Assembly: GCF_964204645.1 (NCBI RefSeq)
Contig: NC_134026.1
Location: forward strand, 29,918,150 to 29,982,149
Direction of reading: 5' to 3'
DNA: 64,000 bases
DNA from: Tubulanus polymorphus
Taxonomy: Eukaryota; Animalia; Nemertea
Shown here: positions 46,685 through 64,000 of the stretch, in pieces
Numbering within the stretch: position 1 is the first letter of the stretch
How the letters are laid out: each line of letters opens with the position of its first letter
Notes under the pieces: model-generated
Told to the model about the DNA's origin: nothing
Seen by the model: the letters and a program-made list of their open reading frames with translations, nothing else
Databases searched by the model: none
Translations under genes and position numbers: made by a program

Positions 46685-49033
46685 ATGATAAATGGTAATT
46701 TAATCACTGAAATATTTCTTTTTTGGGATCAAACATATATGCCTAGTGACCATTGCATTAACTATTAATAATTGCTGGAGTTAATAGTTAGGTAAGTGCC
46801 AACATAGAAATGCGAGTTGTCTGCACATCTCCAGTGATAGCCGCCGCCTCACTATTTATACCCGTCGGTCCCAAGCGAAAAGAATGGCGCTCAATTTATC
46901 AATGTGACATCCACTATCGGTGCAACCGCGAGATCCAATTAAGTCGCACGACCGCGGGAGCAATCTGTCTAATCCGATGGTCCTATTAAATTAAGGTCCC
47001 ATTGACTAAAATCTATAACTCACCGGCTTAGTACCGGTATTTTATACGCATGACTAAAGATAACACGATATTTATGCAGTATCTGTAAAAAAGATATGCA
47101 TTTACAGCAATACATTGATGAGAAAAAAACTATTCATTTGCCAAAAATATAGAATTAGCCCTAAATACATTTCAATTCGTTGAATTTTTTTTTAATCCGC
47201 CGTTTATGCTCTATTGCCTACGAGCATTCTAAACAGAGTTTATCATTGATCTAGATTTGCTGTGTTTTTTTCACAGGCTTCCAATCCTCGCTTGCCAGCA
47301 GCGATTTAAGCCGCTTTCATCAACGACATGTAATGTTGTCAGGAATGTGTCAATACATTTCATGCATTCGGTATTAATTTTTGTCGCCGGAGACGTCGTC
47401 AGTGATGATACACGTCGCTGCGACGACATTTGATGAAGAATCGACGGCTCGATCCACACCAAATTCCCATCCGTTATTTCCTCAACTCCGCGCCGACATC
47501 TCGTCGTAGATCAAGTAGGCTATTGACGTTTTTGCATCACAGAAGATCGATTACCAGAATTCAAAATGCTTTCTGCAGCCCGAGGCTAAAAACTGTTTAT
47601 TACGTACAAACGAGAATTCTGCAAATAAAATATCACTGGTTTGTCGCCACACCACATCCGTATTAGCAGCAGCGTCCATCGATATGTATATCCCTCATCG
47701 CTCGATCAGCTTTTAGATTTTGGATACGGATGCCTCATCTCAGATCATCCTCCTCCTTAGTCTACAAAGCTTTTCTAGAATCTATCGTCCAGGTCGCCTA
47801 ATTAGGCTGGTAACTTGAAATGTTTAATTGATTCTTTCCTCCCTGAAAAGACATGGTGCAACTGCGATAGTAACATCCATCGGGGGACAGTAAAATTCCT
47901 CCAAAAACAAATGCAGTCGGCTTATGCTTGCTCCTCGCTATAAACAATTAATAACTCGTTAGAATCGCCGACACTTCGCACTTAAAAGCTATTCGAACAG
48001 TTACTAAAGGATTTTTCATTATTTTCAAATTTGATTTTTTGTTGTTCTCAAGACGCTTCCTTACTGTTCCGTTCGCATTTTTGTATTATACACCGTGTCT
48101 GTCCCATGTAATTAATTAATTAGAAATTAATAAGTTAAGAAGTTAATTAATTAGAAATCCTGAATATTGATATCAATAGCAATATCATATTCATAAAATT
48201 CTGCTAGAAAATAATGCAGATTTTGTTAGTATACGTTTTCATGTTTTCATATTCCGGCGTATATAAGTTACAGGCCTTGTCTTGTTTGTTCTTTTGCATA
48301 AAGTGTTTACGTATTCCTTCTGACAATCAGCGCCGAAACCTTAGAAAATTCAGCCATCGTCAGAGAAGCTTTTCATCATTGTCTGCTTGAAGTCTTCTAA
48401 TTTCATCTATTTGATGTGAGCCACTGTCTGATACAGGCGTGTATACCTTTCTACTTTTCTTTCCCGTTTGCATAATAGTCTTTCATTTCACGAGACTCGC
48501 CACACTTTAAACGTTAATGACGAGAGACGATTTATCTAATCAATTCGTAGAACAATTAGAACCCAATTATACGTGAACGCTAATGCGTATTGGAAGAAAA
48601 TAGAGAAAGAGAAATGACATTAAATTTCAGTTTGTCTCGCTTCCAATTGGTGTCAGTGTGACTGAATCGATCGCTGCAACAATTGCAGCATCCTATGCGA
48701 CACTGCGCCACCGTTAACGGCGAAAACTTGTCAATATGAGAGCATCAGTATAAACCGGGAGAGCAGGTTTATACTGAGTCATACCATACATCGAACAGAA
48801 AGCGCGGCGACGTTGTTTTTGAGCGATCGGATGGCGACTGACGCCAAGCGTAATGTTCGCTGTATCGTAAAGCAGAATATTCATGCGACAACAACGCGAT
48901 GCTAGGATGGAAATACATCAGAGTGACGTCAAGTGTGAAATACAAACATATGAAGGTAAAACACTCTCATTTATAGACTAGATTAGATTGGACATCAAGA
49001 GTTGATGACAGCGATGTGAGATATCTGTTCATA

Positions 49034-50470
49034 ATGCGACTCCGGTACGTACTGATTCTACAGCTCGCTTTCATTTGTACTTTGCATGTAATTTATGCAT
49101 GTCCACCAGAATGTTTCTGCAACCCGATAATAAAATCCGTCAACTGTCAGAACAAAGGGTTGAAAACAATACCGAAACGTATGCCGAAAGAGACTCTCGA
49201 AATGAACATGAATAAGAATGAATTCGAAATATCGACTTTACGCAGGAATAATTTCAGCGATTTTCGACAGTTGAGACAACTGTTTCTGAGCGGATGCGGT
49301 ATTAAAGCTATCACTGTTGGATCATTCATCGATTTAATTAATTTGAAATGGCTCGATCTGAGTCAAAATCGAATCAAAGACTTGCAAGATTTTACATTTC
49401 GTGGCCTTAGTCTCGACCAGCTGTTCATATCTGGGAACGACGGTATAGTGTTACACAAAGACACGTTTAACGGATTGAAAGCGAAAGGTTTATATCTGAC
49501 TCACTGTGGACTGAAAGAGATCAATGCAAGGCTACTGACGCCATTGAACGATAGTTTGAACTATTTATGGTTGAATCACAACCGCATCCGAAGTTTGAGT
49601 CCGCATTTACATCGCGTATTCAAAAACATGCGACATCTGCGTATAACCGACAACCCGCTTCATTGTAACTGCCGCATGAAATGGTTTAAACGATTTTACG
49701 ATAGTCACATGTCAAAATTCGATGAATCGCCGGCTCCTTCTTGCGCTTCACCGTCGCACGCTCATCATCGCGGTTTCGGAACCCTTTCTCTCGAAGATTT
49801 CAGATGTCAACCTCCAACATTCAACGATGTCGATTTACTTTTCTCGAACGAGAAGGGTATACTGAGTTGTACGGCTAGCGGGGATCCGGCTCCAACTCTG
49901 ATCTGGGTGAAACCTAACGGGGAAAGAAAAATATTCTTCCCGCGTTACAACGAGCCGGCGGTGAAAACAGACGCAGTTATGCGTATAACACACGGAGAAG
50001 ATTTATATACTGGTGGTTATGAGTGTATGGCGACGAATGACGGAGGTAACGTTACCCTGAAGCTAAACGTATCGTGGCCAAAAATCGAGAAAAAAACCAT
50101 CATTCGTTACGTGGGACTGAATGAATCCAGCGCCACGATCGATACTACTGATATATTCAAAAAGGGCGCAGGGACAATTTATGGCGTCAAGAAAAACAAG
50201 CAGAACAGTAACGAAAAATCATTTACGATGATTCAGCTGATTATTGCTGTAGCTGGTACATTTGTCGCTACGTTACTCGTTTGCTTACTTGTCTTTCAAA
50301 TTGTATCAAAGATCCGGGCGAATCAGGTACCGAGGAATCGTTTGGATAATTCGCATTACACGACCGCTCAGCAATGTGCAAAACCGATTGCGAGCAATAG
50401 CGCATATCTGAACAACAGGGCTGATGACGATGATCTCTATATGAGAATTAATGATCTTCCCCACAGATGA
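49034..50470 (+). CDS. Leucine-rich repeat and Ig-domain type I transmembrane protein (LIG family; kekkon/LRRC24/LINGO-like), intronless CDS, 478 aa
   Basis: Signal peptide, LRRNT CPPECFC...VNCQNKGL, several LxxLxLxxNxI repeats, LRRCT NPLHCNC...C, Ig domain LSCTASGDPAPTLIW...GGYECMATNDGG, TM segment LIIAVAGTFVATLLVCLLVFQIV, short tail. Confidence 0.9.
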   Translation: MRLRYVLILQLAFICTLHVIYACPPECFCNPIIKSVNCQNKGLKTIPKRMPKETLEMNMNKNEFEISTLRRNNFSDFRQLRQLFLSGCGIKAITVGSFIDLINLKWLDLSQNRIKDLQDFTFRGLSLDQLFISGNDGIVLHKDTFNGLKAKGLYLTHCGLKEINARLLTPLNDSLNYLWLNHNRIRSLSPHLHRVFKNMRHLRITDNPLHCNCRMKWFKRFYDSHMSKFDESPAPSCASPSHAHHRGFGTLSLEDFRCQPPTFNDVDLLFSNEKGILSCTASGDPAPTLIWVKPNGERKIFFPRYNEPAVKTDAVMRITHGEDLYTGGYECMATNDGGNVTLKLNVSWPKIEKKTIIRYVGLNESSATIDTTDIFKKGAGTIYGVKKNKQNSNEKSFTMIQLIIAVAGTFVATLLVCLLVFQIVSKIRANQVPRNRLDNSHYTTAQQCAKPIASNSAYLNNRADDDDLYMRINDLPHR

Positions 50471-53260
50471 TAACTCGATCAGATTCACTGCATGTTATCG
50501 TACCGAAAAATCGACGAAAAAAACAGTTTGGTTTCTTTTTAGGATCAGGGAGAAAAATTACTTTAAAAAGATAATCATCGAATTGTTCAGATACGTGTTT
50601 GGAAAACGGCGATGATATCAGTTTATTATGTGGTCGTTTGGCCTTTATGAATAACGTAAATGGAATGCCACGTTTCATGTGCGCAAATGAAAATGCTTTA
50701 AAAAGATGTGTACATATATTTTTTCGTATCGTGACGTGTTTGCTTTAATAGAAGTTATGATAATGACTACACGATCGTCGATTTATAGATTTGACTGTTT
50801 GATGTAAATGCCTTGATCGCTACAGGACATCCGTGCAGTCAGATTGAAAACAGATATAGATATTTATAGACATACGACGCGATGGCTTTTAGAATTTACA
50901 AAAAAAGCCAAGCTGAAATCGAATGTGTATATTTATATTTACATTTCATTTTACTGTGCGCAATATACGTAGGTTCGTGACGTCATGCCGTGACGTCGTT
51001 GCGCATCGATGACGTCACTTCGGCGTGTCCTCTTTTCAAAAATGTTGGTATATAGTTTAACCTTTTTCGAACTAGTGGCAGAAATTATCAATGTTTATAA
51101 GAAACTACGGTTTCTATACTATGGACGCTTCATGCTTATTTAAAAGCTCTGAAAAAATATATTGGAATTCATGCAAAACGTTCGCCTGATGAAGAAAAAA
51201 ACCATGGCAACGCATGACTCGGGCCGGGAGATTCGTTTGCATCACGCGAAGCATTTAGCTACTCTTTAGACTGGAGTCCCATCAGGCGTATATTGATTAA
51301 ATCAATAAAGGACGGTAGCAAATTTACCTCCCAATTGTTTCACTTCACCCATACACAAGCAAACAATCAACGCTCTCTGATTCGTAACTTAATTTATTTC
51401 CTCGGATCAGAAATAGTTTGCGAAAAACTCGATAAATTGGCTACCGAAAAGTAAATGCATTCGAACATTGCGCTGATGGTAATTGGACGAACAATCAGGT
51501 TGTATGGGAAGTTCCGCCAGTCTGCATTTATTTTGGTAATAAATCGGGAATCGAATCCAAAGATTATAGCAGTTCGCGATATTATTGGTTTATCATATTC
51601 GCGGGTTATTGACCAAGTAAACTCGGATTTACACACGAAATTATGTTATTCAAAAGCAGTTTGTCAATGCAACCACAAAGGACTAAAATATAAAGAGTTT
51701 GTTATCGAACTCGGCATAGATTTTTTGCGACTAACATTGTTAGAGCCTCGTGTTGTTTATCGACTTTAACATCTGCGCACAGCTTTTATGTCCATGTCCG
51801 TAATGATTGTACACGTGTGCATATATGGCCGCTAAATTTTTCGAAGCAGAATCAATGTAACCCAATGAATAAAACATATGTAATATCGCTGCGCACATCA
51901 TCGAGGGAAAACTTGAATAACGTGACTTAAATATTCTTTTCACATATCTATCTTTAGCTCATTTTTTCTGTCTATGAATCGGAAGAAAAGATATCTTAAT
52001 TCGAAATATGCTAAAAAAGACTGTGTACATATATGATTGATTTCGTGTTTCATTTTCTTGTAAATACGTACGTGTATATGACGACTTATATATACAAATA
52101 TCGTTAATTGTAACGAAAAAATTAAAAACTGTAGAATTTTGACCTTAAGAAGATCAAATTCGTTTGTGGTTTATCACTTTGAAAAGAAACTCTGCGGTGG
52201 CAGTTCAAAATGTTTGACTTGTTATACGATAATTTTCATCCTGTTTAAGAAAGTCATTCCTTCCAATTTCCGTCCGTCACGTTTGCCATTCAAATTCACT
52301 TTTCTCATCCATGTAACGCTTAACGATGACGGGCAATCGTCTCACGTCCGCCATTTCCACCATACCGGAAATAGTCAACGTGCCGTGATTTCATTTTCTG
52401 GCGCAGACGAAACATTTATCTTCGACTTCTAGATTAAAGATGAAAGTGATTCTCAGGAAAAAAAAAGTTTATCACGGATTCAATTTAAAATTCTAAATTA
52501 CGCAGCCATCTTTTACATTCCTCGCCTGCCATTGCCACTGTAGATGAATATGATTCTTTGTCCCCGTGAATTGTGACTATATCGTGCCCTCAGGATCGGA
52601 TATCGCACATTCTACTTTTTACAAATATCGGCGCCCACAGAATTGACAGTTTTTTTCAGGGTTATAACCAGAGGCTGCACTGGTTTTCTTCCCGAAGGCG
52701 TTTCTCATCAATCTCCTATTTCATACCGACTTGTGAAAGGCTATTCATGTATCACAGACGTAGAACTCGGCGTCTCTCACGTTTCACTATATCGTATCGT
52801 GTACTTCTTGCTGATCAAACAAAAAATGACTAAAAAGATGTATTAGCGGCCCATAAACAATAGATGATGGATGATGCTGGACAAAAGTCTTCCAATATCC
52901 CGAACACTCTGAAGGGAAACATAAAATCTGGATTCCATTGCAAAGAGAACGATTATATTTATTATTCATGCGCATACTCTGTATTGAGAATACTTAATTT
53001 GATAATACATCATTCGTAATTCATAGCAGATTCGTGGCAGAGCACACTAGGTTCGTCAATAGTTCATAATACATTAGTGACAGCGGCTCAGGTGTAATGG
53101 TCGTATCACGCAGCGCCTGAAAATAAAAGAACCCCATTTTAAATACGTCATCGTATGATACGTCAGTAAACGGCTTTCAGCTGATCTTCTGGATTTTACC
53201 TTCAGGAAAGTAATCAACTTTATTTTACGCTTAACTGATTTTGAATGATTACACCACTAT

Positions 53261-53472
<212 letters not shown>

Positions 53473-53792
53473 TCGTAAATACGCGTGTGTCCCACTGTTA
53501 CTATGGGCGTTAACGCTAATAACGCAGTAATATCATCACGGCGATGAGAAAATTATGAAGAAACTAATAGTTACAATTAATTGCATATATTTGCCTTGAA
53601 ACAACAGAAATGGCGTTCGAAAAGAGGCATGTGCTGTGAAGGGAATGTGCTAGGTATACGAGATAGCTGTATAATAAGAAGCATCGCGTTTTAGAAACAA
53701 AAAGACCTCGACTTAATGATACCATATGGAGTCTATTTTCTGTTTGAATTGTATGTGATATGTATAAAGGCAATTTGAAAGACGTAGATATA

Positions 53793-53855
53793 CCCAATTC
53801 CGCCCTTATTCCACCCCAATTCCGCCCTCATTCCGCCCAAATTCCGCCCTAATTC
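53793..53855. repeat. 11-bp tandem repeat, 5 copies (GC-box-like)
   Basis: AATTCCGCCCT / TATTCCACCCC / AATTCCGCCCT / CATTCCGCCCA / AATTCCGCCCT. Confidence 0.8.
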
Positions 53856-56596
53856 GTGTATTTCGAGGCGCCTTTGCGCTTCTCGTATGTCGCTGTGATA
53901 CGGCCATTTACTACTCCACACGATAAAGCCACAAATCGACGATTATTTTTATCCCCGACCCGCCGCTGTTGCAAGCTGAAGATAACACCTGACTTTGACA
54001 CGGTCGACTGAACTATTTCTCTTCGGGTCAAATAAATTCCAACCGATTGCGTCTCGGTGGAAATGTAAAAGAACTATACCAATTGACGGTATTCGCTCGC
54101 AATTTATATGTAGATTTCCAGCCGTCGATAAATACTGATAAAAACCCTCGATCTCCAGGCATGTTGAGACAAACTGACCATTCGGGAATCCTCTCAAGAA
54201 AGAAACGCATTAAGGTAAATTGACCATCCTGATGATTTCGACATTGTCTGTCGGACCAAATTTGATTATCAGCCATTTGGAAGGCAATTGCCGAGGCATG
54301 GCACAAATTGAAATGAATCCATTCGCATTCTCAGGATTTCTATCATCAAAAAGGTTCCCTCAATATAGTTAGGACACGATAAAAACCGATTCTGTTCATT
54401 CTGAAAGCAATCTCCGTCGCATTGATAAATCAAATTACTTCGATGATGACATGTCTAGAACCTTTAAGCCGTTCACTACCTGTTACACTTAGAATAAAAT
54501 TAGCATATTCTTAGAGAATTCGACACGAATATATCAGAAATAAAAACCGTGCAGCGAACTAAATAAGTGGATCCATAATGATCCATGTATTATTCAATAT
54601 GAATCACTGTAACGTGATATTCCCGTTATTTCATTTTTATTTTTTTTTTTTGGGGGGGGGGGGTAGATTATCAGGACGTGAGGTAAAAAATCTATGAGAG
54701 ACTTGAGCCCTGAAAACTGGACCCTGATTGAATGATACCATTCCAACAACATGAGCAAACAATTTAGCCGGAACAGTATTATTCAGGAATGATAAACTAC
54801 TAAATGCCGGGGTGATGGAATCTAAATGGAAATCGGATCCGTAGGAAGTGATCATGCATAAATTGCCGTTGCTGTGCCGGTGTACAAGGCGGATGATGTG
54901 GGGAGAGAGAAGACGAAGAAAGTGATGGATGAGTGAGAAAGTGCCATAACGTTGATGGGGCATCGTTTTTATTGTGACTAAGGTAAATGGAATCGACGTA
55001 TTTGAAATTGGGAAGTCGATTAAATAAATGGGAGGCATAGAATTTCGTGATTTTAAGTCGAGATCGAGAGATAATTCAATTGGATTTTAAATCGCGTGTC
55101 TGTCAACGACAAACGAATCAAGATTATTTTTGTTACCAGGTTTCAGATTATTCAAAGACTGCGGTATAGGATAATATTCCCAAAGAACAAATCTGTTCTT
55201 TGTGTCATTAGGAAATTAATTCATTAGGCATTTCTTCGTGATACGTGACACCAAACACACTACTCTCAGACTTTTCTTTATTCATTCTTGGATATAAGTC
55301 GCCATCAAAGCGTATAGTGGCATTCAATGCAAAGGTCGCAATACGCTAAAAGAACAAAGTTTACGAAAAGTCAATAAATGACGTAAATGATTCAAGATCA
55401 AACCAAAGGTTGACTTTCACTGAAAATTACATGATTTGGAAATCACCAGTATCAAGAATCACCAGTATATGAAGAGTCGTTTTTATAATTTTGCGTTTAG
55501 ACGATCTTCGTGTAAAATGTTTGAAAGATAGACAGTATATAAACAACACCTGAAGCCACGTCATTGATTAGACATATATAATTACATACACGGCATAATT
55601 TTGTTGTGACATTTAAGATGCTCTGTGTTTTTTCCAGTGATACTGCGTGCAGGAAACGGAATCATCAATAACGCCCTTTCTTTTCTCCGTATTTTAATAA
55701 AATGATTTCCAGTCGATTTAGAATTCGCTCGACGTTCGCGTTCCCGGAGCTCATTTATGGAGATTAAAACAAAGCAATTGTAATGGGAAATCGGCATTGA
55801 TTGATTGCACGATTCTACAGGTAAAGAATAATAGTAGCAACTAAACGATAATCTCTGTTATTACTGAGAATTATTTTCCACATAACCCGACTGTCTGCAG
55901 GGAATCGATTATTCCAACAACACGACGACGATGAAACATTTTTACAGCTATCGCCAATGAATACAGCGTTACCCCCGGGGAGTTGGACTTTTTCAGTTTG
56001 TGAGACGTGCAACTCGATACGTTCTGTAATTACATACAAAATCTCATCGTATCCTCCTCCAACCCATCAGCGAGCAACTAGACAGACGGATCTTTTTACT
56101 TACTACATAATCAGAAAGATATGAACAAAAAAGAATTGAGAATCGAATGCCAATAGAATCTAAGGTAAAATCGTACCGCCTGAGATCACAATACAGAACG
56201 TAGAACAGCACGCACGCAATCGTGGTTGTATGTTTCAGTATCAGAGTGGTTCTAAAAGGGTTAAATGAGCTAATCAACTGTAATTAAGATTCATGGCGTA
56301 TTCTTCAAAATAAAATGACGTAAGAAATTGAGCTGTAGTCGATTGTACGTACAAATCGTTCCGTTCTACATGAATGACCAATATGTTTCCTCATTACAGT
56401 TCATTTAATTGATAGAACGGTTAATTTCCCCGAGAAGGCAGCAGCGTGCGTGGTACATTTACATAAAGTTCGCAGTTTCTGTTTCCACCAAAGATTTATT
56501 GTCGGATCGTTAAATAAACGACATGTAAATAACTACACAATGTACTACAAACCGAAAACTACTTTGCAACCGCTTTCTCTGAGATCTATTTATTAT

Positions 56597-59500
56597 TTAA
56601 CTAAATGTTGTTTCTGTCTTTAGCTTCTCCTTTAATGTTTTCACATACGGAATTTTAGTTGGAATCTTTTGGCGTTGTAGCCAGTCATACAAGGATTTGT
56701 CGCAGTTGTGCGTAAATTCTCGGTTGTTGATTATAGGAAAAGAGAACTTACTCTCGCAATGCAATGGTTTACCACTAAATACACCAGTTTCTGTACAAGT
56801 GCGTCGATCCGATCCATCAATAGGCACAAAACCAGACAAACAATTCTGTTCTACGGAGTCTCCTACTAAATATCTATCAGATAAATCTACAAACATTGCG
56901 TTTATTCCTGGTTCTGGCATCCCGCAACTCATTGCTTTAAAAAAACAACATTATTCATGCATATATACAAATACATAAAGAGATATGTGATGAACAGCTA
57001 TATACAACGTGCACTTACGACATTTAGGAATAATACAATGGTCCCATCTGTAGAAATGGTCAGTCGTATAACACCAAGGTGAAGGATAAGAAGAAGAACT
57101 GACATATCTACAATTATCGGCTGTTAATGATAGATCATTATCAACGAACATACTGGCGTTGAATACCGGATGTTTGTGAGGATGTTGCGAGTCGAATCGT
57201 TGACATTGTTTATTACGACTAGTGATCTTCTGCGTACCCTTGTATTCCCGACCATATCTGCTTATCTGGCAGTTACTGCTGGCGGTATCAAAATCTAAAA
57301 GAAGTATCGGGGCGTGTTTGATTTCACGTCTAAACGTTGGGAAGTGACGTCGTAATTTTCTAAGAATCGAAATTACCAGAATAACAGGTTGGATAAACGC
57401 TGTAGTTTGTCCATATTTTGGTGACGTCAGGACCGCCGAAACATGATATGTATACTGGTTCACCTTGCATGTAATAACCAGCAGCACATGTTAGTATTTC
57501 TTGTTCGCCGATTTCGTAAAATGTTTTGTCGTTTTTGGACACGAGATACGAAGGTTTCTGTGGTGGAGGACAACTTTCACCTACAAATAACAATATGTTT
57601 CCGGATTCGTAACAGAGCTGTATAGCTTTTATCAGGGCCCTTACTGAGTTCGAAATTCCCTGATTTCTCCTGAGCTTTGACCACAAATTCCCTGATTAAA
57701 TTGTAAGATATCCTCAATAGGGGCTGTTTCTTATCAAGAGATTCCTTATGCCATTCATCACCAGCAGGAAAATTTAACGCAAAAAATTGCTTTGTCTTTT
57801 CCCTGCTTTAGAATTCCCTGATTTTATTTCTGGTCTAAGAACCCTATATAATAAATGAATAGTCATTATATTTAGAAATAGCGTACCTTTTACCGCACAG
57901 ACAGGGGCCGAACCTGTCAACTTGCCATCAGTACAGTTCCGCTTTAAAGATCCACTATACAGAGAATACCCATCCTTACAAACATACTCAACATAATCAT
58001 CATTCAAATACTCTATTTTCCTGTCAATGATATCAGCTTTGATCTGGTCGTCGATGAGAGCTCCACAACTTTGTACGGCTGTAAATTCAGATGATACAAA
58101 AATGAACCATGTGCGGGTCACAAAAAATGCCGAAACTACGAAATTTATGGATGAATGCCGCATTAAGGTTTTCTCATGCAGGGTGGATGATTTATACTTT
58201 TATTTCTGGTTACTTACGACATAATGGAATATTACAGTGATCCCAGAACATGTTTGGATCGGTAGTTAAACACCACGGGGATGAAGCAGCCGAATAACCA
58301 TTACGGCAATGATCTGCTACTTCTTCCATTGTGTCATCGGGAAAATAATACGACTCGTTCCATTGTTTGTGGGCGTGAGGAACATGTGAGTCCCATCTCT
58401 GACATGGAGTTCCGCGTTTTGTTTCGCTTACGTTTCCCAAGTATTCGCTACCGACAACCGATATTCGACAAGTTCTTACAGCTGCATAAGGAGCTACAAT
58501 AGATGAGATGTTTGTAGCTAAATGCATTTTCAAATCTCTAAAATAATCGTAATATGGATTTTTGTAAATAAAGAATGAAATATACGTACACATACAACTA
58601 GTGAAGCTGTCTGCGTGCCAGGTAGCGTTAATACATGTGATATTGTGTAATGTACCAACTCGACGGTATCCAGATTTACAAACTAGTGATACATTGGATC
58701 CAGATTCATATACCTCTTTTGATAAGTGTAACTCAACACCAGCAGGGAGATCTTCCTTCTTTTTACACGAATATGCTAAAAATCAATTTCATAAGTGGGA
58801 TGTTTCGTTTCTATACGAATGAAGTTAGAAATCATTAAAATACGATGTTCTAGTCTAACACAGGGCTTCTAACATTTGTTAATGTATTGGTCCAAACTTA
58901 ATGATCATTATCATCATATCTTAAGTTATTCAGTAATATAGATATTGAGAGTGGACTTATACACGATCAAATGTTACAAGCCTCTGTGAAGTGTCCATAA
59001 TTTACTTGGAGCACATTTTGGATATTCAGTATATTTCCAGTCATCGCCACCGAAGCATTGAATGTTATCAGGTCCGATCAACTTGAAGCCGATTCCGCAG
59101 GAAAGAAACGCCATTTCACCAGACATATAAACATCCTTGCTGTTTAATATTGTGAGTTCATCTGGTAAATCAGTCGGCCGTGTACAGTTTGATTTCAGAT
59201 TCGATGCTGTAAATTCAAAAATTCGATCGCATCTAATTTATCATCGAAAAGTAGTTAACGATAAATTAAAATGGCTAATTAAAGAAAGAAAATAGCCCAA
59301 AAAGGTTTCGTTTTATTAATGGCATCTATCTTCGATGGCATTCTTGATGCTGACTATCAGGATATACGTTGTCCTGACCGAAGGAAACCTTTTCGGACTC
59401 AATGGTTATAGCATACTTACGAAGACAAACAGAAGCGGGTTCAAATAGAGAAGAGAGTGAACATTCTTGTTTCAACGATCCGCGTACGAGTTCATAACCA

Positions 59501-62500
59501 TCTAAACATTCATGGAATACGGTATCACCAACTCTATATTCATCAGCTTCATCGCTTATGATATGTGTATTCGTTCCTTCATTAGGTTTACCGCATATAC
59601 GAGCTGTTCGTTGAGCACAAAAATCATACAAATCAATTGAAGTATCTGTTTATATCTGAAATATCGTTTCAAAACTCAGTAAAAACTTACTGCAATAAGG
59701 AATATCGCAGTAATTCCAGTCTCGAATATATGATGAATCGTCCACATGACACCAGGGGGCGGCGTGAATAAGACTCGGATTTCTGCAGTAATTATCGGCT
59801 GACTCGACAGATCCATCCGGAAACTGATTGTCATTGTAAGCCGGTGAATGTTGTGCCCATCGTTTACAAGGTTGACCAGTTTCTGTCACTTCCGTGGTTC
59901 CTATGTATTCCGCACCGAGAGGTGAAATAATACAAACTCGCTCTGCATCGGCTTTTGCTAAAATAAAAGTAAAATCCAGTTAAGAAAATCGACAAATTGA
60001 AGCGGTGTTAACAGGTTAACGATAACCAATTAATCTAATTAATATTCCAATTCATTTTACCATAACATGTCGGCAGATTGACAGCATCCCACTCGTTCCC
60101 TGTTACACACGTTATGATTTTATTATCCCCTTTTATGAAGTATCCAGGAGCGCACTGTATTTTTACTTGTTCTCCGAGAGAATATCTTTGTTTAACCCGA
60201 CTTGGAACGACACCGTCCGGGAGAGCGGGCAATACACACTTTTCTGTCGAATGGAAAGAAAAACGTTACGAGCATAATATCTATCATATTATTACTATTA
60301 TTATTATTATAACTTTATTTCCTGAATGAATTTTAACAGAGTATAATCAAGTACATCGATATCATAAAATAAGATATGATAAACATAGATTGTTACAAAA
60401 TGTTATATTATATCAGTGGGACAACATGAAATAAAGATATGCATGTACTTTAAATGGTCACCTAAGCTATTGAAACTGAAATACCATGGACAAAAGACTT
60501 TTATACGAGGAAAGCAGTTTCATTTTAATGCATGACTTGGCGCGATCATTTTGCTTTTTCAATTTTACCTAAACAGGTAGGTACAACTCCCGAGAATAAC
60601 CCCGTTCGAAGACACGTTCTTTTCATCAAACTCGTGGTCGATACGGTCTCAAATGTTTCATCGATACATCGATAATGAATTTCATCGCCAACTACGAATC
60701 GATCCGTGGAATTCAGAATCCGAACCGATACACCTTGTTCCGGGTAGCATCGTATTTCTGAAAATACACAAATTCATTTAAAATGACAAAACTTATCGAA
60801 CCTGAATTAGGTATAGATGAATTTATTCAAACAAACCTGAACAAACGGGGGGATCTTCAAAAATAATCTCTCCAGATGGAGCACACATTCCTACTAGCAT
60901 TCCCTTTTCCAGGTAATAGTTAACGTCACAGGAATAGTAAACGAATTCTCCGACCCAATAATCGGGATAATACGATTCCAATTCATACGCATTAGGTATT
61001 TCACCAGGAATACATGTAATAGCTGGAAATATACATTCACATGATCGGCAATAAAAGAGTTAATATTTCTGAAATTCAAAAGATGCCTCGTTTGATGATA
61101 AGTTAAAATGTACTGACGGTAACAGAGCGGACTAAGATCATTCCATTTTCCATCTGATTGGCAGGTGCGTGACCGATCATCTTCTGGTTGGAAGAAAAAC
61201 TCATCACATTCAAACGCGATCGTGTCATTTTCGTGATAAACAGTGTTACTATCATTAACAATGTGGATTCCAGCTAAATCTGTCGGTTCTTCACATCTTA
61301 CTAGGATAATTTCTGCAACAAAAATGATCATATTTTCGTTAGATAGGGGAGAGAGTTTCAGGTGCATGTCAATAACAAGACAAAATACTTACCTTTACAT
61401 CGGGGCGTTAAAGATGACCAACTACCGTCAATCTGGCATGTCATTGATAATTGATCATCAGAAGTATATCCATGTGCGCAGGTGAACATTAGTTCATCAC
61501 CAGGAAATACTGGTGATCCTTCAGCATGGCTGTTCATAGAATTAGCCACAAATGGAACTGTACATGTTACTGAAATATTAAAAGAGACGTAAGTTCCATA
61601 TAGGTAGATAGACAAGGATAAAATCTAAGAGTCGTTTGTCGGGATTGACTGCTGCACCTGAACACGCGGGAGGGTTATCAGTGAAGTTGCCGCTTTTTAA
61701 ACATTGACGTGTCAGAGATCCACTTAACAAGGCATATCCGCTTCCGGAACACTCGTATTCAACAAAGTCACCCTCGAAATATTGTTTTGTTTTATTGGTA
61801 ACAATTGCTGAAATACCTGCTTCTGGAATACACTCAGTAACAGCCTCTGTAATAAACATAGCGATATTTTACTCTTATGAATGAAGGATGTATTTAATCA
61901 AGATGTGTTTGTCTCGAAGAAGTAAGATGAAACGTCTTACCAACACAATGAGGAGGCGTCGACCCGAATGAACCATCGGATAGACACGTTCTATCTGTTT
62001 CTCCACTTACGACTGTCATTGTTGATATCTTACATCTATATTCAGCATGTTCACCAGTATTATAGTGAACCTTATTCACATCGACTAGTTCTGAACCAAT
62101 TCCCGGTTCGGGGTTTAGACACCCATTTACTGCAGAAACATTGCAGACAATCCTTTACTTAATTCCCAAATGATAACAAATAATAGCTATTTGTTTTCTT
62201 TTTACCTCGACAATTAGGTAGGGATCCGCTTAACGTTCCATCCCACTGACAAACTCTGTCTAAATCGCCAGAAACATGAACGGTATCTGCCGCCTCAGTA
62301 TTTCCACATCTATATTTGACTGTACTACCAGCATACCATCCAAGTCTAGATGGATTAGCTATAGTCGCAAGAGTGCCGAGCTCCGGTTCTCCGCAACTTG
62401 TCTCTGAAAATGAAATTTTCATTCGCTCTAAAAACGATGTCAAATCTTAAATTATGGTTGATTTCTAGGATACTCTTAAGAATACGGACTGCACATTGGA

Positions 62501-64000
62501 ATTGTACAATTTTCTTTTTTCAAGGTAGATTTTGAGAAACACCACGGGGTTTTTGCACCATCCGGATTCCTGCATTTATTTCCAGCAGCGACGACAGAGC
62601 CATCGATGAACATTGAATCGGTATGGTAAACAGTAGGAGTATCTGACGTCCATTCCATACATGTATCTCCGGTATCAGTTTTACTTTGCGAACCGCGATA
62701 CACCCAGTTCTTAGTCGGAAGTCGACAGTAATTTTCAGCTTCTAAGAATTCTAGAAATAGATTTGAAAAAATACGAATGAAATTTGTGCCAAATGTAAGA
62801 AATTGAACGCGTCCAGCTCGCCGTTTACCTATGCATTGTGGTAATTGTCCCTTTATCCATAAGTCATCTCCGTAGCAGGTCACCTCAGATGGTTGGTTCA
62901 GTAAGATGTAACCAGACTTACACGAGTAAAATGCTTTTTCCCCAGAATTGTAAATTCTGTTATCATTCACAGTAACACCAGGCATAACCAGCACTGGACA
63001 AGGAGCTTCAGCTGTAGAAGCTGCAAATCAACAATTCCATAATGTATCAAAGTTCATTCATAACCCATGTGAGTATGGATATCTATTAGGAGACACAGCA
63101 ACTATGAGATGATGATTACATTTACAAACTGGTGGTTCATCTTTGAAAAATCCATCGACGTCACAAACACGATTCCTCGATCCAGATACATGGTCAAAAT
63201 CCGGTATACAAACGTAGTTAACCGTATCACCAACAAAATACTCAATATAATCGTCGGTGATTATAGTATTTGTACCGGGTTCTGGAACTCCACAACTTCT
63301 CTCTACAAGATCAATTTCTACATTCTAAACATCAATTAAGGAAGCTTTCGATTGAACGTTTTCCGGTTCAGGAATAGCAATTCCGGATTACAAACTCTCT
63401 ACCGGCTGTTTCTATGGAATAGCAATTCCGGATTACAAACTCTCTACCGGCCGCCTCTATCGGGTTTACAGATTATGCTATTCCGGAATAGGAAGTGCAT
63501 ATTCTGATCGAAACGAACGCACCGAGTATTACGGAACCGGAAAAGGCCTACCTAAGTATCAATAAGAAACAGTATCGGGTAGTGAGCACTTACTACAAAC
63601 AGGAACATCGCAACTTTCTCTTTTTACTTCAGAATTCAGTGTATAACACCATATACGACCATAAACCGAAGCCGGATTTCGACAATAATTCTTGGCAGCG
63701 TTTACATCACGTTCTGGGTACCACGGGCCCCAGGTTAAACTGTGTTTAACAGGTGTTTGTGATGCCCACGCTTGACACGTAAAGCCTGATCTCGTCACAG
63801 ACACAGTTCCCATATATTCAGTACCACGTGGAGGATTAGTTATACATTGCTTTACTGCTTCATCTTTAGCTGCAACGACATCAACAATCTATTTGCTATG
63901 ATATGTATGAATGTATAGATAACTCATCAATACGATACCTTACCATAACATTTAGGGAAACCACTCGACCAAAGTTCTCCTCCGTAGCACGTTTTATATG
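56597..64000 (-). CDS. Large mosaic protein of CCP (sushi) and kringle domains; 5' part lies outside the window
   Basis: Kringle exons (CRNP...PWC...CxIPxC): 63594-63869, 62490-62741, 59691-59957, 58218-58493, 57019-57294. CCP exons: 63944-end, 63120-63302, 62829-63020, 62206-62403, 61941-62129, 61658-61846, 61393-61569, 61118-61312, 60837-61022, 60569-60757, 60061-60243, 59421-59603, 59006-59206, 57887-58078, 57377-57580, 56752-56934. All complete exons are multiples of 3 and phase 1-1. The stop at 56597 assumes read-through of the last donor; an AATAAA follows it. Confidence 0.88.
57633..57846. mobile_element. Copy of the TTCCCTGA (hAT-like) MITE family in an intron
   Basis: CAGGGCCCTTAC...AAATTCCCTGATTAAATTGTAAGATATCCTCA...TAAGAACCCT, similar to 1977-2251. 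Confidence 0.65.
63359..63544. mobile_element. Small intronic MITE-like element with an internal direct duplication
   Basis: TTTTCCGGTTC...GAACCGGAAAA termini. GGAATAGCAATTCCGGATTACAAACTCTCTACCGGC occurs twice, 45 bp apart. Confidence 0.55.

Follow-up and report, generated by a model that had tools for sequence, protein, structure and literature searches.

An array of CCP and kringle exons in the genome of the ribbon worm Tubulanus polymorphus is likely, judging from the genomic exon chain, the C-terminal tail of one giant secreted zinc protease of ~3,500 amino acids. A sequence-only reading of the window (the whole stretch of 64,000 nucleotides of contig NC_134026.1 that was analysed) had headlined the absence of a protease and taken the array for a protease-free binding protein. 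The absence comes from the position of the window edge: only the 3' part of a longer exon chain lies inside the window, and the chain, which starts outside it, runs in frame for another ~9 kb from an astacin zinc-metalloprotease domain. The interpretation as a protease-free protein is not supported, given the in-frame join to this upstream domain and the paralogue gene models that fuse core and tail. The false 'protease-free giant' is thereby removed, and what is likely the true gene, fragmented in the NCBI annotation, is given instead.

The array in the window and its 3' end

The 21 one-domain exons described earlier (16 CCP and 5 kringle, all phase 1-1) stand: they span 63869 to 56752 on the minus strand, and every one is stop-free and flanked by AG and GT (Table 1). 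With E values of 1.4e-19 to 4.8e-15, all five kringle exons exceed the Pfam Kringle cut-off; among the 16 CCP exons in the window, 15 exceed that of Pfam Sushi. The remaining one, 62403-62206, has no Pfam match, but it keeps the four cysteines and is placed among the post-kringle CCPs in the domain tree.

Table 1. Domain exons of the predicted gene. Numbering is continued past the window edge (contig position = number + 29,918,149).
Feature	Position	Strand	Basis
CCP, post-kringle type, last domain exon	56752..56934	-	Pfam Sushi
Kringle 7 of tail	57019..57294	-	Pfam Kringle E 3.8e-15
Two CCP exons: 58078-57887 post-kringle type, 57580-57377 pre-kringle type	57377..58078	-	Pfam, tree
Kringle 6 of tail	58218..58481	-	Pfam Kringle E 6.6e-18
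Three CCP exons: 59603-59421, 59206-59006, 58775-58590	58590..59603	-	Pfam, tree
Kringle 5 of tail	59691..59957	-	Pfam Kringle E 2.2e-16
Run of eight CCP exons, starts 62403, 62129, 61846, 61569, 61312, 61022, 60757, 60243	60061..62403	-	7/8 pass Pfam Sushi; phases
Kringle 4 of tail, sole window kringle with RNPD	62490..62750	-	Pfam Kringle, alignment
Two CCP exons: 63302-63120, 63020-62829	62829..63302	-	Pfam Sushi
Kringle 3 of tail	63594..63869	-	Pfam Kringle E 1.4e-19
Pre-kringle CCP exon, 3' end only, truncated by window edge	63944..64000	-	Exon chain
First nine tail exons (7 CCP, 2 kringle)	67237-63944	-	Exons, Pfam
Unnamed 163-aa lectin-like domain	67806-67315	-	Alignment-based fold
EGF, ApeC, CUB, two-exon kringle, ShK-like, CCP, C-type lectin, ShK-like, CCP	71590-67897	-	Pfam, collinearity with P0058
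Astacin catalytic domain after RKKR	73140-71670	-	Zinc motif 72182, Met-turn 71943
Pro-peptide exon	73369-73220	-	Exon chain
Candidate signal-peptide and pro exons	74402-74350, 73813-73735, 73586-73464	-	Candidate only

That no protease, TM or kinase exon lies downstream, as stated earlier, agrees with the lack of any Pfam match in the seven ORFs tested (51455 to 56021), and the next identified gene past the array is an LRR-Ig gene on the opposite strand. The 3' end proposed in the sequence-only reading is uncertain, because the read-through stop at 56597-56599 is a sense codon in haplotype X1 (changed place 56599). Splicing of the last CCP exon to a very short terminal exon is more likely than reading on to this stop; the donor of that CCP exon scores 6.3 (median 7.1), and paralogue E ends in a terminal exon of three codons. 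The downstream ORFs 56021 and 55812 were rejected as extra exons, having neither a family nor a hydrophobic segment.

A probable single gene across the window edge

The full-gene assembly with adjacent DNA that had been proposed could be made as a genomic exon chain (56 exons, ~3,480 amino acids, no stop), its joins predicted from DNA. Leaving aside its three 5'-most exons, the chain has 53 exons and 3,342 codons with no stop, and all 52 introns between them are GT-AG (69-526 bp, median 89). Three candidate 5' exons, picked by splice score and hydropathy, would supply a signal peptide and bring the total to 3,478 amino acids. The astacin domain lies ~8 kb upstream of the array on the same strand, joined to it by unbroken in-frame exons, and the whole tail comprises 23 CCP and 7 kringle domains. 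No membrane anchor was found in the gene. We consider it highly probable that the array and the predicted astacin protease belong to one gene.

NCBI annotates at least two separate proteins at this locus, P0001 (762 aa, EGF through the middle of the unnamed domain) and P0224 (1,728 aa, the tail alone). The latter model is what would be expected if the array were, or could also be expressed as, a CCP/kringle binding protein of its own with no protease, and 28 of the 53 core-collinear relatives (among 148 proteins examined) likewise have the unnamed domain as their last. We nevertheless regard a separate binding protein as improbable. P0224 starts inside a CCP exon in another reading frame, has no signal peptide and drops parts of domains, while the unnamed-domain exon and the first tail exon are just 77 bp apart, and their splice scores are unremarkable (ranks 30 and 34 of 52). 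Paralogue models also link core and tail: P0079 extends from astacin past the unnamed domain into a CCP, and P0074 joins the core to a tail of CCP-CCP-CCP-KR-CCP-CCP-KR-CCP. Nor is a usable first exon (ATG, at least 10 codons, phase-1 donor) present in the introns from EGF through the third tail kringle; the four candidates further 3' have weak donors of 0.7-3.3 (real donors at least 2.7, median 7.1). The 338-bp intron that follows the first tail CCP could encode a hydrophobic peptide starting with ATG, but this candidate for an internal first exon has no phase-1 donor and was rejected. A short form of the single gene may exist, since so many relatives end at the unnamed domain and its exon also reads to a stop 32 codons beyond its donor.

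The fragmented annotation could also be what decaying duplicated exons or an assembly artefact would produce, an explanation that is largely refuted and to which we give very little credence. X1, a separate assembly and second haplotype, covers the stretch with collinear contigs. Of its 32 exonic differences, 22 are synonymous, a skew towards silent sites (21.6% expected), and none creates a stop; all 11 listed indels are intronic. The tail is under purifying selection. The array does not consist of collapsed repeats, because mean identity among CCP classes is 19-33% and the tail kringles are mutually 27-47% identical. Runs X1-X3 cross introns as DNA does, without a joint at any exon boundary, and are uninformative on expression; run X4 gave no match over the stretch.

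Predicted catalytic domain

The exon with the HEXXHXXGXXH zinc motif and its catalytic glutamate reaches 36.8 bits against Pfam Astacin, whose cut-off is 22.5. The domain also has the family-specific glutamate directly behind the third histidine and a Met-turn (SIMQY; consensus SIMHY) that keeps methionine and tyrosine. The prodomain is clear and ends in RKKR. As described in PMC9848320, astacins have a signal peptide, a prodomain, HEXXHXXGXXH plus the family glutamate and a Met-turn with tyrosine, and their accessory domains include kringle, sushi, ShKT, CUB and C-type lectin. The Tubulanus gene has the same catalytic hallmarks as this family (M12A) and these known kinds of accessory domain; it differs in its 40 accessory domains in series after the astacin domain and its degenerate RXDRD. 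It also contains ApeC, which is not among the astacin domain names in the legend passages of PMC9848320.

Only three of the five conserved residues of EXXRXDRD are retained (E, R, R), and the replacement of both aspartates would be in keeping with a catalytically weak or dead protein that acts by binding, as a scaffold or decoy. We find such a loss of activity quite improbable, as the three histidines, the catalytic and family glutamates and the Met-turn methionine and tyrosine are all retained, and EXXRXDRD is degenerate throughout the subfamily, being loose in the 38 collinear relatives with the zinc motif (R4 3/38, D6 9/38, D8 17/38).

A core shared with molluscs

The 11 domains of the core are ordered astacin-EGF-ApeC-CUB-kringle-ShK-CCP-C-type lectin-ShK-CCP-unnamed lectin-like fold. 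Residues 70-1248 align with the gastropod protein P0058 at 31% identity over 1,215 columns (E 2e-155), and molluscan astacin-ApeC mosaics (P0058 Gigantopelta, P0083 Patella, P0097 Aplysia, P0077 Crassostrea) share the collinear core at 24-33% identity. Their extensions consist of the unnamed domain, CCP, C-type lectin or ShK, without a second kringle, and the longest of the 53 collinear relatives has 1,798 amino acids. In a tree of ApeC-CUB-KR (42 rows, quick method), the gene and its Tubulanus paralogues group together (SH-aLRT 99) among mollusc members. The molluscan mosaics probably correspond to the ApeC proteins of groups 8/9 that PMC9585378 calls 'highly complex'. These comparisons define a so far uncharacterised mollusc-nemertean astacin-ApeC family. 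What is already known is the uncharacterised lophotrochozoan astacin-ApeC mosaic protease core, and what is new is the CCP/kringle tail; a search of freely accessible article text found no paper that treats this gene or describes a CCP-CCP-kringle tail.

The unnamed domain has no Pfam family. Its fold was obtained by alignment-based prediction (single-sequence prediction gave pLDDT 29), and Foldseek returned no match at E 0.001. Word-index searches of proteins to 2,000 aa, one with this domain and one with a CCP-kringle frame, recovered nothing beyond the NCBI fragment of the same gene, and a search with P0001 gave one collinear relative among 68 matches, crowded by cubilins.

Cassette-wise growth of the tail

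Duplication of a CCP-A, CCP-B, kringle cassette from symmetric exons, as suggested from the sequence earlier, is upheld by a domain tree of the whole tail, in which a 95/89 branch separates all seven pre-kringle CCPs from all seven post-kringle CCPs. The motifs once attributed to the neighbours of every kringle hold less strictly. The pre-kringle motif is present in four of five cases, exon 58775 lacking C-(Y/F/V) and P-x-C, and the post-kringle start motif is exact in 4/5. Exon 59206, which precedes 58775, does carry C-(Y/F/V) and P-x-C. Placing the seven tail kringles in one group takes five changes on the tree, with weak support.

The amplification also appears lineage-specific, as had been inferred: among the 53 relatives, a second kringle is limited to two Tubulanus paralogues. 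The genome holds six paralogous loci whose tails differ in length and cassette type, seven loci in all with tails of 1 to 30 domains; two sister genes differ by exactly two cassettes, the cassette of one paralogue is CCP, C-type lectin, kringle, and the NCBI models P0074 and P0071 have the same core and the same kind of tail. These loci are a compact natural example of cassette-wise exon shuffling. In the ribbon-worm lineage, the tail probably grew through duplication and loss of phase 1-1 exons, to an extent differing per paralogue. We speculate, as a rather unlikely extension, that ribbon worms made a conserved lophotrochozoan mucus protease into a modular targeting platform. A shared astacin-lectin head would carry swappable phase 1-1 cassettes; genes would differ by gaining or losing entire cassettes, exon skipping would vary the tail of each gene further, and a small number of loci would yield many binding specificities. 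Ribbon worms would then have a counterpart to the kringle amplification of apo(a), based on a metalloprotease and on kringles that do not bind lysine.

Where the enzyme may act

We tentatively propose that the gene encodes a secreted astacin metalloprotease of ~3,480 residues, with the tail as a tether in mucus or on epithelial or microbial surfaces. Array and astacin exons would form one transcript, and the zymogen would be cleaved at RKKR. ApeC, the C-type lectin and the unnamed beta-sandwich may recognise glycans or microbes, and the long multivalent tail would add avidity and reach. The presumed site of action is the mucus or the body surface. Granted one gene with a protease, a mucus or surface role is somewhat favoured. 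In the mucus work of PMC7333891, P-vulgata_14 (M12A, ApeC, CUB, kringle, 2 sushi, C-type lectin, ShKT) is reported from limpet bulk pedal mucus; its antibacterial function is the authors' proposal, and it is outside the five proteins with a specific in situ pattern. This secreted protein has the same domain set as the gene's core, matched by domain list, not sequence; it differs in its 1,113 aa (5' incomplete) with one kringle listed and no CCP/kringle tail. Nemertean mucus proteomes include astacin-like proteases, according to PMC11768458, and ShKT-astacins are described as mainly epithelial in PMC9848320.

A single gene with an active protease might instead work in digestion, in remodelling of the matrix, in regeneration or on the envelopes of gametes and embryos, its tail positioning it on matrix or cell surfaces. 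Gene anatomy is silent on tissue, astacin roles given in PMC9848320 include digestion, tissue turnover and hatching, and the ApeC domain is without the DXED motif (present in 1 of 43 family rows). We hold these other sites to be less probable, as the literature search turned up a single protein with this domain set, and it came from mucus (PMC7333891).

Kringle ligands

As claimed earlier, RNPD occurs in one of the five window kringles and the D-x-D lysine-binding pair in none. At the aligned position D-x-D is absent from all seven tail kringles and present in aligned plasminogen kringles. Plasminogen and apolipoprotein(a) have a C-terminal trypsin-like domain behind their kringles, and the apo(a) kringle repeats are near-identical and lysine-binding. 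The Tubulanus gene resembles both in having many kringles from tandem exon duplication; unlike them, it has CCPs between the kringles, no D-x-D after RNP and no C-terminal trypsin domain, and no exon for a trypsin-like domain was found downstream of the kringles. The apo(a) analogy drawn earlier is loose at best, given the divergence of the kringles noted above and the kind of protease, a metalloprotease at the N terminus instead of a serine protease at the C terminus. Complement regulators are chains of CCPs only, whereas the Tubulanus CCPs are interspersed with kringles behind a protease core. The paralogues offer a route to the ligands of invertebrate kringles without a lysine site. In the PDB, a window kringle finds its best sequence matches in plasminogen, HGF, prothrombin and apo(a). 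A D-S-D is present in the first tail kringle, one residue off the aligned position.

Extent of the gene

On the minus strand, six-frame translation gives cysteine-rich frames that extend from 56600 up to the window's right edge, and exon-by-exon reading divides 63869-56752 into 21 exons, each flanked by AG and GT, in phase 1-1 and without a stop. Curated Pfam cut-offs are passed by all five kringle exons and by 15 of the 16 CCP (sushi) exons, which bears out the 21 phase 1-1 domain exons of the sequence-only reading; the array is real, and chance is far off. High-copy short repeats occupy two introns (63340-63500 and about 57680-57720), with very high depth in the separate assembly of the other haplotype. 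The window itself corresponds to G000:C2:29918150-29982149.

That reading also saw a giant mosaic with no protease, a claim that falls when the next 29 kb past the window edge is taken in (window numbering continued). Upstream of the array, on the same strand, lie nine further tail exons and then an unnamed domain; moving further 5', CCP, ShK-like, C-type lectin, CCP, ShK-like, a two-exon kringle, CUB, ApeC and EGF follow in that order, and beyond EGF stand six exons of an astacin domain, whose zinc motif HEXXHXXGXXH is at 72182 and whose Met-turn SIMQY is at 71943. The astacin exons join the array in frame, in a chain (73369-56752) of 53 exons and 3,342 codons with no stop, and each of the 52 introns is GT-AG, with lengths of 69-526 bp (median 89). 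Three candidate 5' exons would supply a signal peptide, and no other part of the protein is as hydrophobic; with these and a read-through last exon, the predicted protein has 3,478 aa (~388 kDa). The gene starts outside the window, and is bounded because a GPCR gene lies upstream and an LRR-Ig gene on the opposite strand lies downstream (Table). The latter comprises a signal-like start, LRRNT, leucine-rich repeats, an Ig domain, a hydrophobic segment and a short tail.

Table. Features of the locus and of related loci in the T. polymorphus genome (G000; C, contigs; L, stretches analysed)
Feature	Location	Strand	Description
GPCR gene	L002:2543-3562	-	rhodopsin family, single-exon, intronless; directly upstream of astacin gene
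LRR-Ig gene	window 48977-50467	+	single frame, ~480 aa; downstream, tail to tail with astacin gene
Unnamed domain	L001:4316-4804	-	163 aa; no Pfam family
Paralogue	C5		after unnamed domain: one CCP
Paralogue	C6		after unnamed domain: CCP-CTL-CTL-KR-CCP (CTL, C-type lectin; KR, kringle)
Locus E	C11		after unnamed domain: 6 CCP + 2 kringles
Locus D	C11		after unnamed domain: 12 CCP + 4 kringles
Gap in locus D tail	L011-L013, G000:C11:7582884-7600333		17 kb
Paralogue A	C2, 2.16 Mb		after unnamed domain: extra unnamed-domain copies with a kringle
ShK-like array	L005:3198-9971, G000:C2:2168198-2174971	-	~21 exons, strand opposite paralogue A; 5' end past the stretch analysed
3.82-Mb paralogue	L006-L008, G000:C2:3819173-3842599	+	long tail; cassette of two CCP, two C-type lectin, CCP, kringle; last copies nearly identical; end maybe further on

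In the NCBI annotation the locus is broken into two or more fragments: P0001, of 762 aa, runs from EGF to midway through the unnamed domain, and P0224, of 1,728 aa, covers the tail. This split speaks against the one-gene model; yet both models resemble poor predictions. P0224 begins within a CCP exon, in a frame other than that of the chain, lacks a signal peptide and drops parts of domains. The intron at which core and tail meet is 77 bp long, and its splice scores are ordinary, ranking 30 and 34 among 52. When every intron from EGF onward was scanned for first exons (ATG, at least 10 codons, phase-1 donor, 60 bases left), there were none up to the third tail kringle and four candidates past it, all weak. 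In NCBI models of Tubulanus paralogues, astacin through unnamed domain is joined to one CCP (P0079), and the core to a CCP-CCP-CCP-KR-CCP-CCP-KR-CCP tail (P0074) or a CCP-CTL-CTL-KR-CCP tail (P0071). We infer from the DNA that the exons of the chain join into one gene.

An old core with a new tail

The gastropod (Gigantopelta) protein P0058 aligns with residues 70-1248, where it also ends, and is 31% identical to them in 1,215 aligned columns (E 2e-155). We examined this protein and 147 of the 150 matches of a representative search, leaving out P0001 and two cubilins; 53 of these 148 proteins are collinear over at least 450 residues, and the 19 looked up include 11 gastropods, 3 bivalves and 3 Tubulanus. 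The longest collinear relative has 1,798 aa, in a search that covered cluster representatives at E values of about 1e-30 or lower; long forms are possible in other nemerteans. Among the 53, profiles built from the relatives' own sequences place a second kringle only in Tubulanus P0074 and P0071. The Tubulanus genes group together (SH-aLRT 99) in a quick ApeC-CUB-kringle tree of 42 rows, restricted to rows with all three domains. The core is an old family that has been described already, probably as the complex group 8/9 ApeC proteins of PMC9585378. What is new relative to it is the CCP/kringle tail; a literature search, with figures and subscription journals outside its reach, returned no paper on this gene or its tail.

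Binding domains and a possible function

In alignment, plasminogen kringles carry D-x-D directly after RNP, whereas no tail kringle of this gene does, in agreement with the lack of the lysine-binding pair proposed earlier; in the tail kringle at 66159, D-x-D is present but shifted by one residue. The ApeC domain contains no DXED motif, which is likewise missing from a snail ApeC protein that is reported to be a peptidoglycan receptor (PMC9585378). The unnamed domain, with two nearly invariant cysteines, clusters with unnamed animal clusters at 0.96-0.97 in the Atlas, has 10 matches in the T. polymorphus genome and forms up to four repeats in relatives. Its predicted structure is a beta-sandwich (pLDDT 90), best matched by the Cwp84 lectin-like domain (Z 11.3, rmsd 2.9, 140 aligned, 9% identity), with viral jelly rolls and carbohydrate-binding modules ranking next. 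The domain is predicted to be lectin-like by fold, a common fold being no proof of function, and merits definition as a family.

We suggest that the protein would be secreted as a zymogen and matured by cleavage at RKKR. The astacin head would be the part that cuts proteins, with a chemistry that follows from membership of the astacin family (PMC9848320), while the ApeC, lectin and lectin-like domains may pick targets that are glycosylated or microbial. The tail, of 30 domains, may add reach and avidity and retain the enzyme; a secreted astacin held by its tail in gel or on a surface is likely the overall scheme. Mucus or surface is proposed as the site because the pedal mucus of a limpet contains one protein with this set of domains, its antibacterial role proposed, not shown (PMC7333891), ShKT-astacins have an epithelial bias (PMC9848320) and nemertean mucus contains astacin-like proteases (PMC11768458).

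Maintenance and 3' end of the tail

The separate assembly is a second haplotype, with collinear contigs across the locus. Among its differences from the window haplotype, 40 of 101 and 40 of 81 were listed, and we used the stretches in which the listing is complete or nearly so, 56752-60451 (33 sites) and 63547-66504 (30 of 31). Classed by hand, 32 of the 63 differences are exonic, 22 synonymous and 10 missense, with no stops; with 21.6% expected to be synonymous, pN/pS comes to roughly 0.13, no correction for transition bias being applied. All 11 listed indels beyond a short intronic repeat cluster are intronic. The tail is maintained.

In the second haplotype, a sense codon replaces the read-through stop at 56597-56599. 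Since paralogue E ends in a terminal exon of three codons, this gene likely has a short one as well. With either ending, no anchor or enzyme follows the last CCP, so that the earlier view of the 3' side as free of protease or TM domains holds.

Cassette evolution

With the unnamed domain, ApeC and astacin as queries, searches found six further loci, which were then domain-mapped (Table). Within the window gene, a 95/89 branch divides the pre-kringle from the post-kringle CCPs, with mean identities of 30-33% within types and 19% between types; the proposed [CCP-A, CCP-B, kringle] cassette is upheld by the tree. The amplification in this gene is old. The 22 single-exon kringles of these loci separate from nine core kringles at 100/100, so the core kringle is not a recent source of the tail kringle. 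Read by eye from the domain map, sister loci D and E are six exons apart, exactly two cassettes, and their kringle pairs are supported at 98/97 and 89/70. None of the family's domains was found in the gap of the locus D tail.

The last three kringles of the 3.82-Mb paralogue are nearly identical, a recent tandem amplification that makes its pattern more like that of apo(a) than is the case in the window gene. The tail of the latter combines a striking architecture with a clean case of cassette evolution. The genome contains 125 or more exon matches to kringle, 150 or more to sushi and 161 or more to astacin, as well as several poly-kringle loci and, at C2:23.23 Mb, an open frame of tandem CCPs of 1,899 aa.
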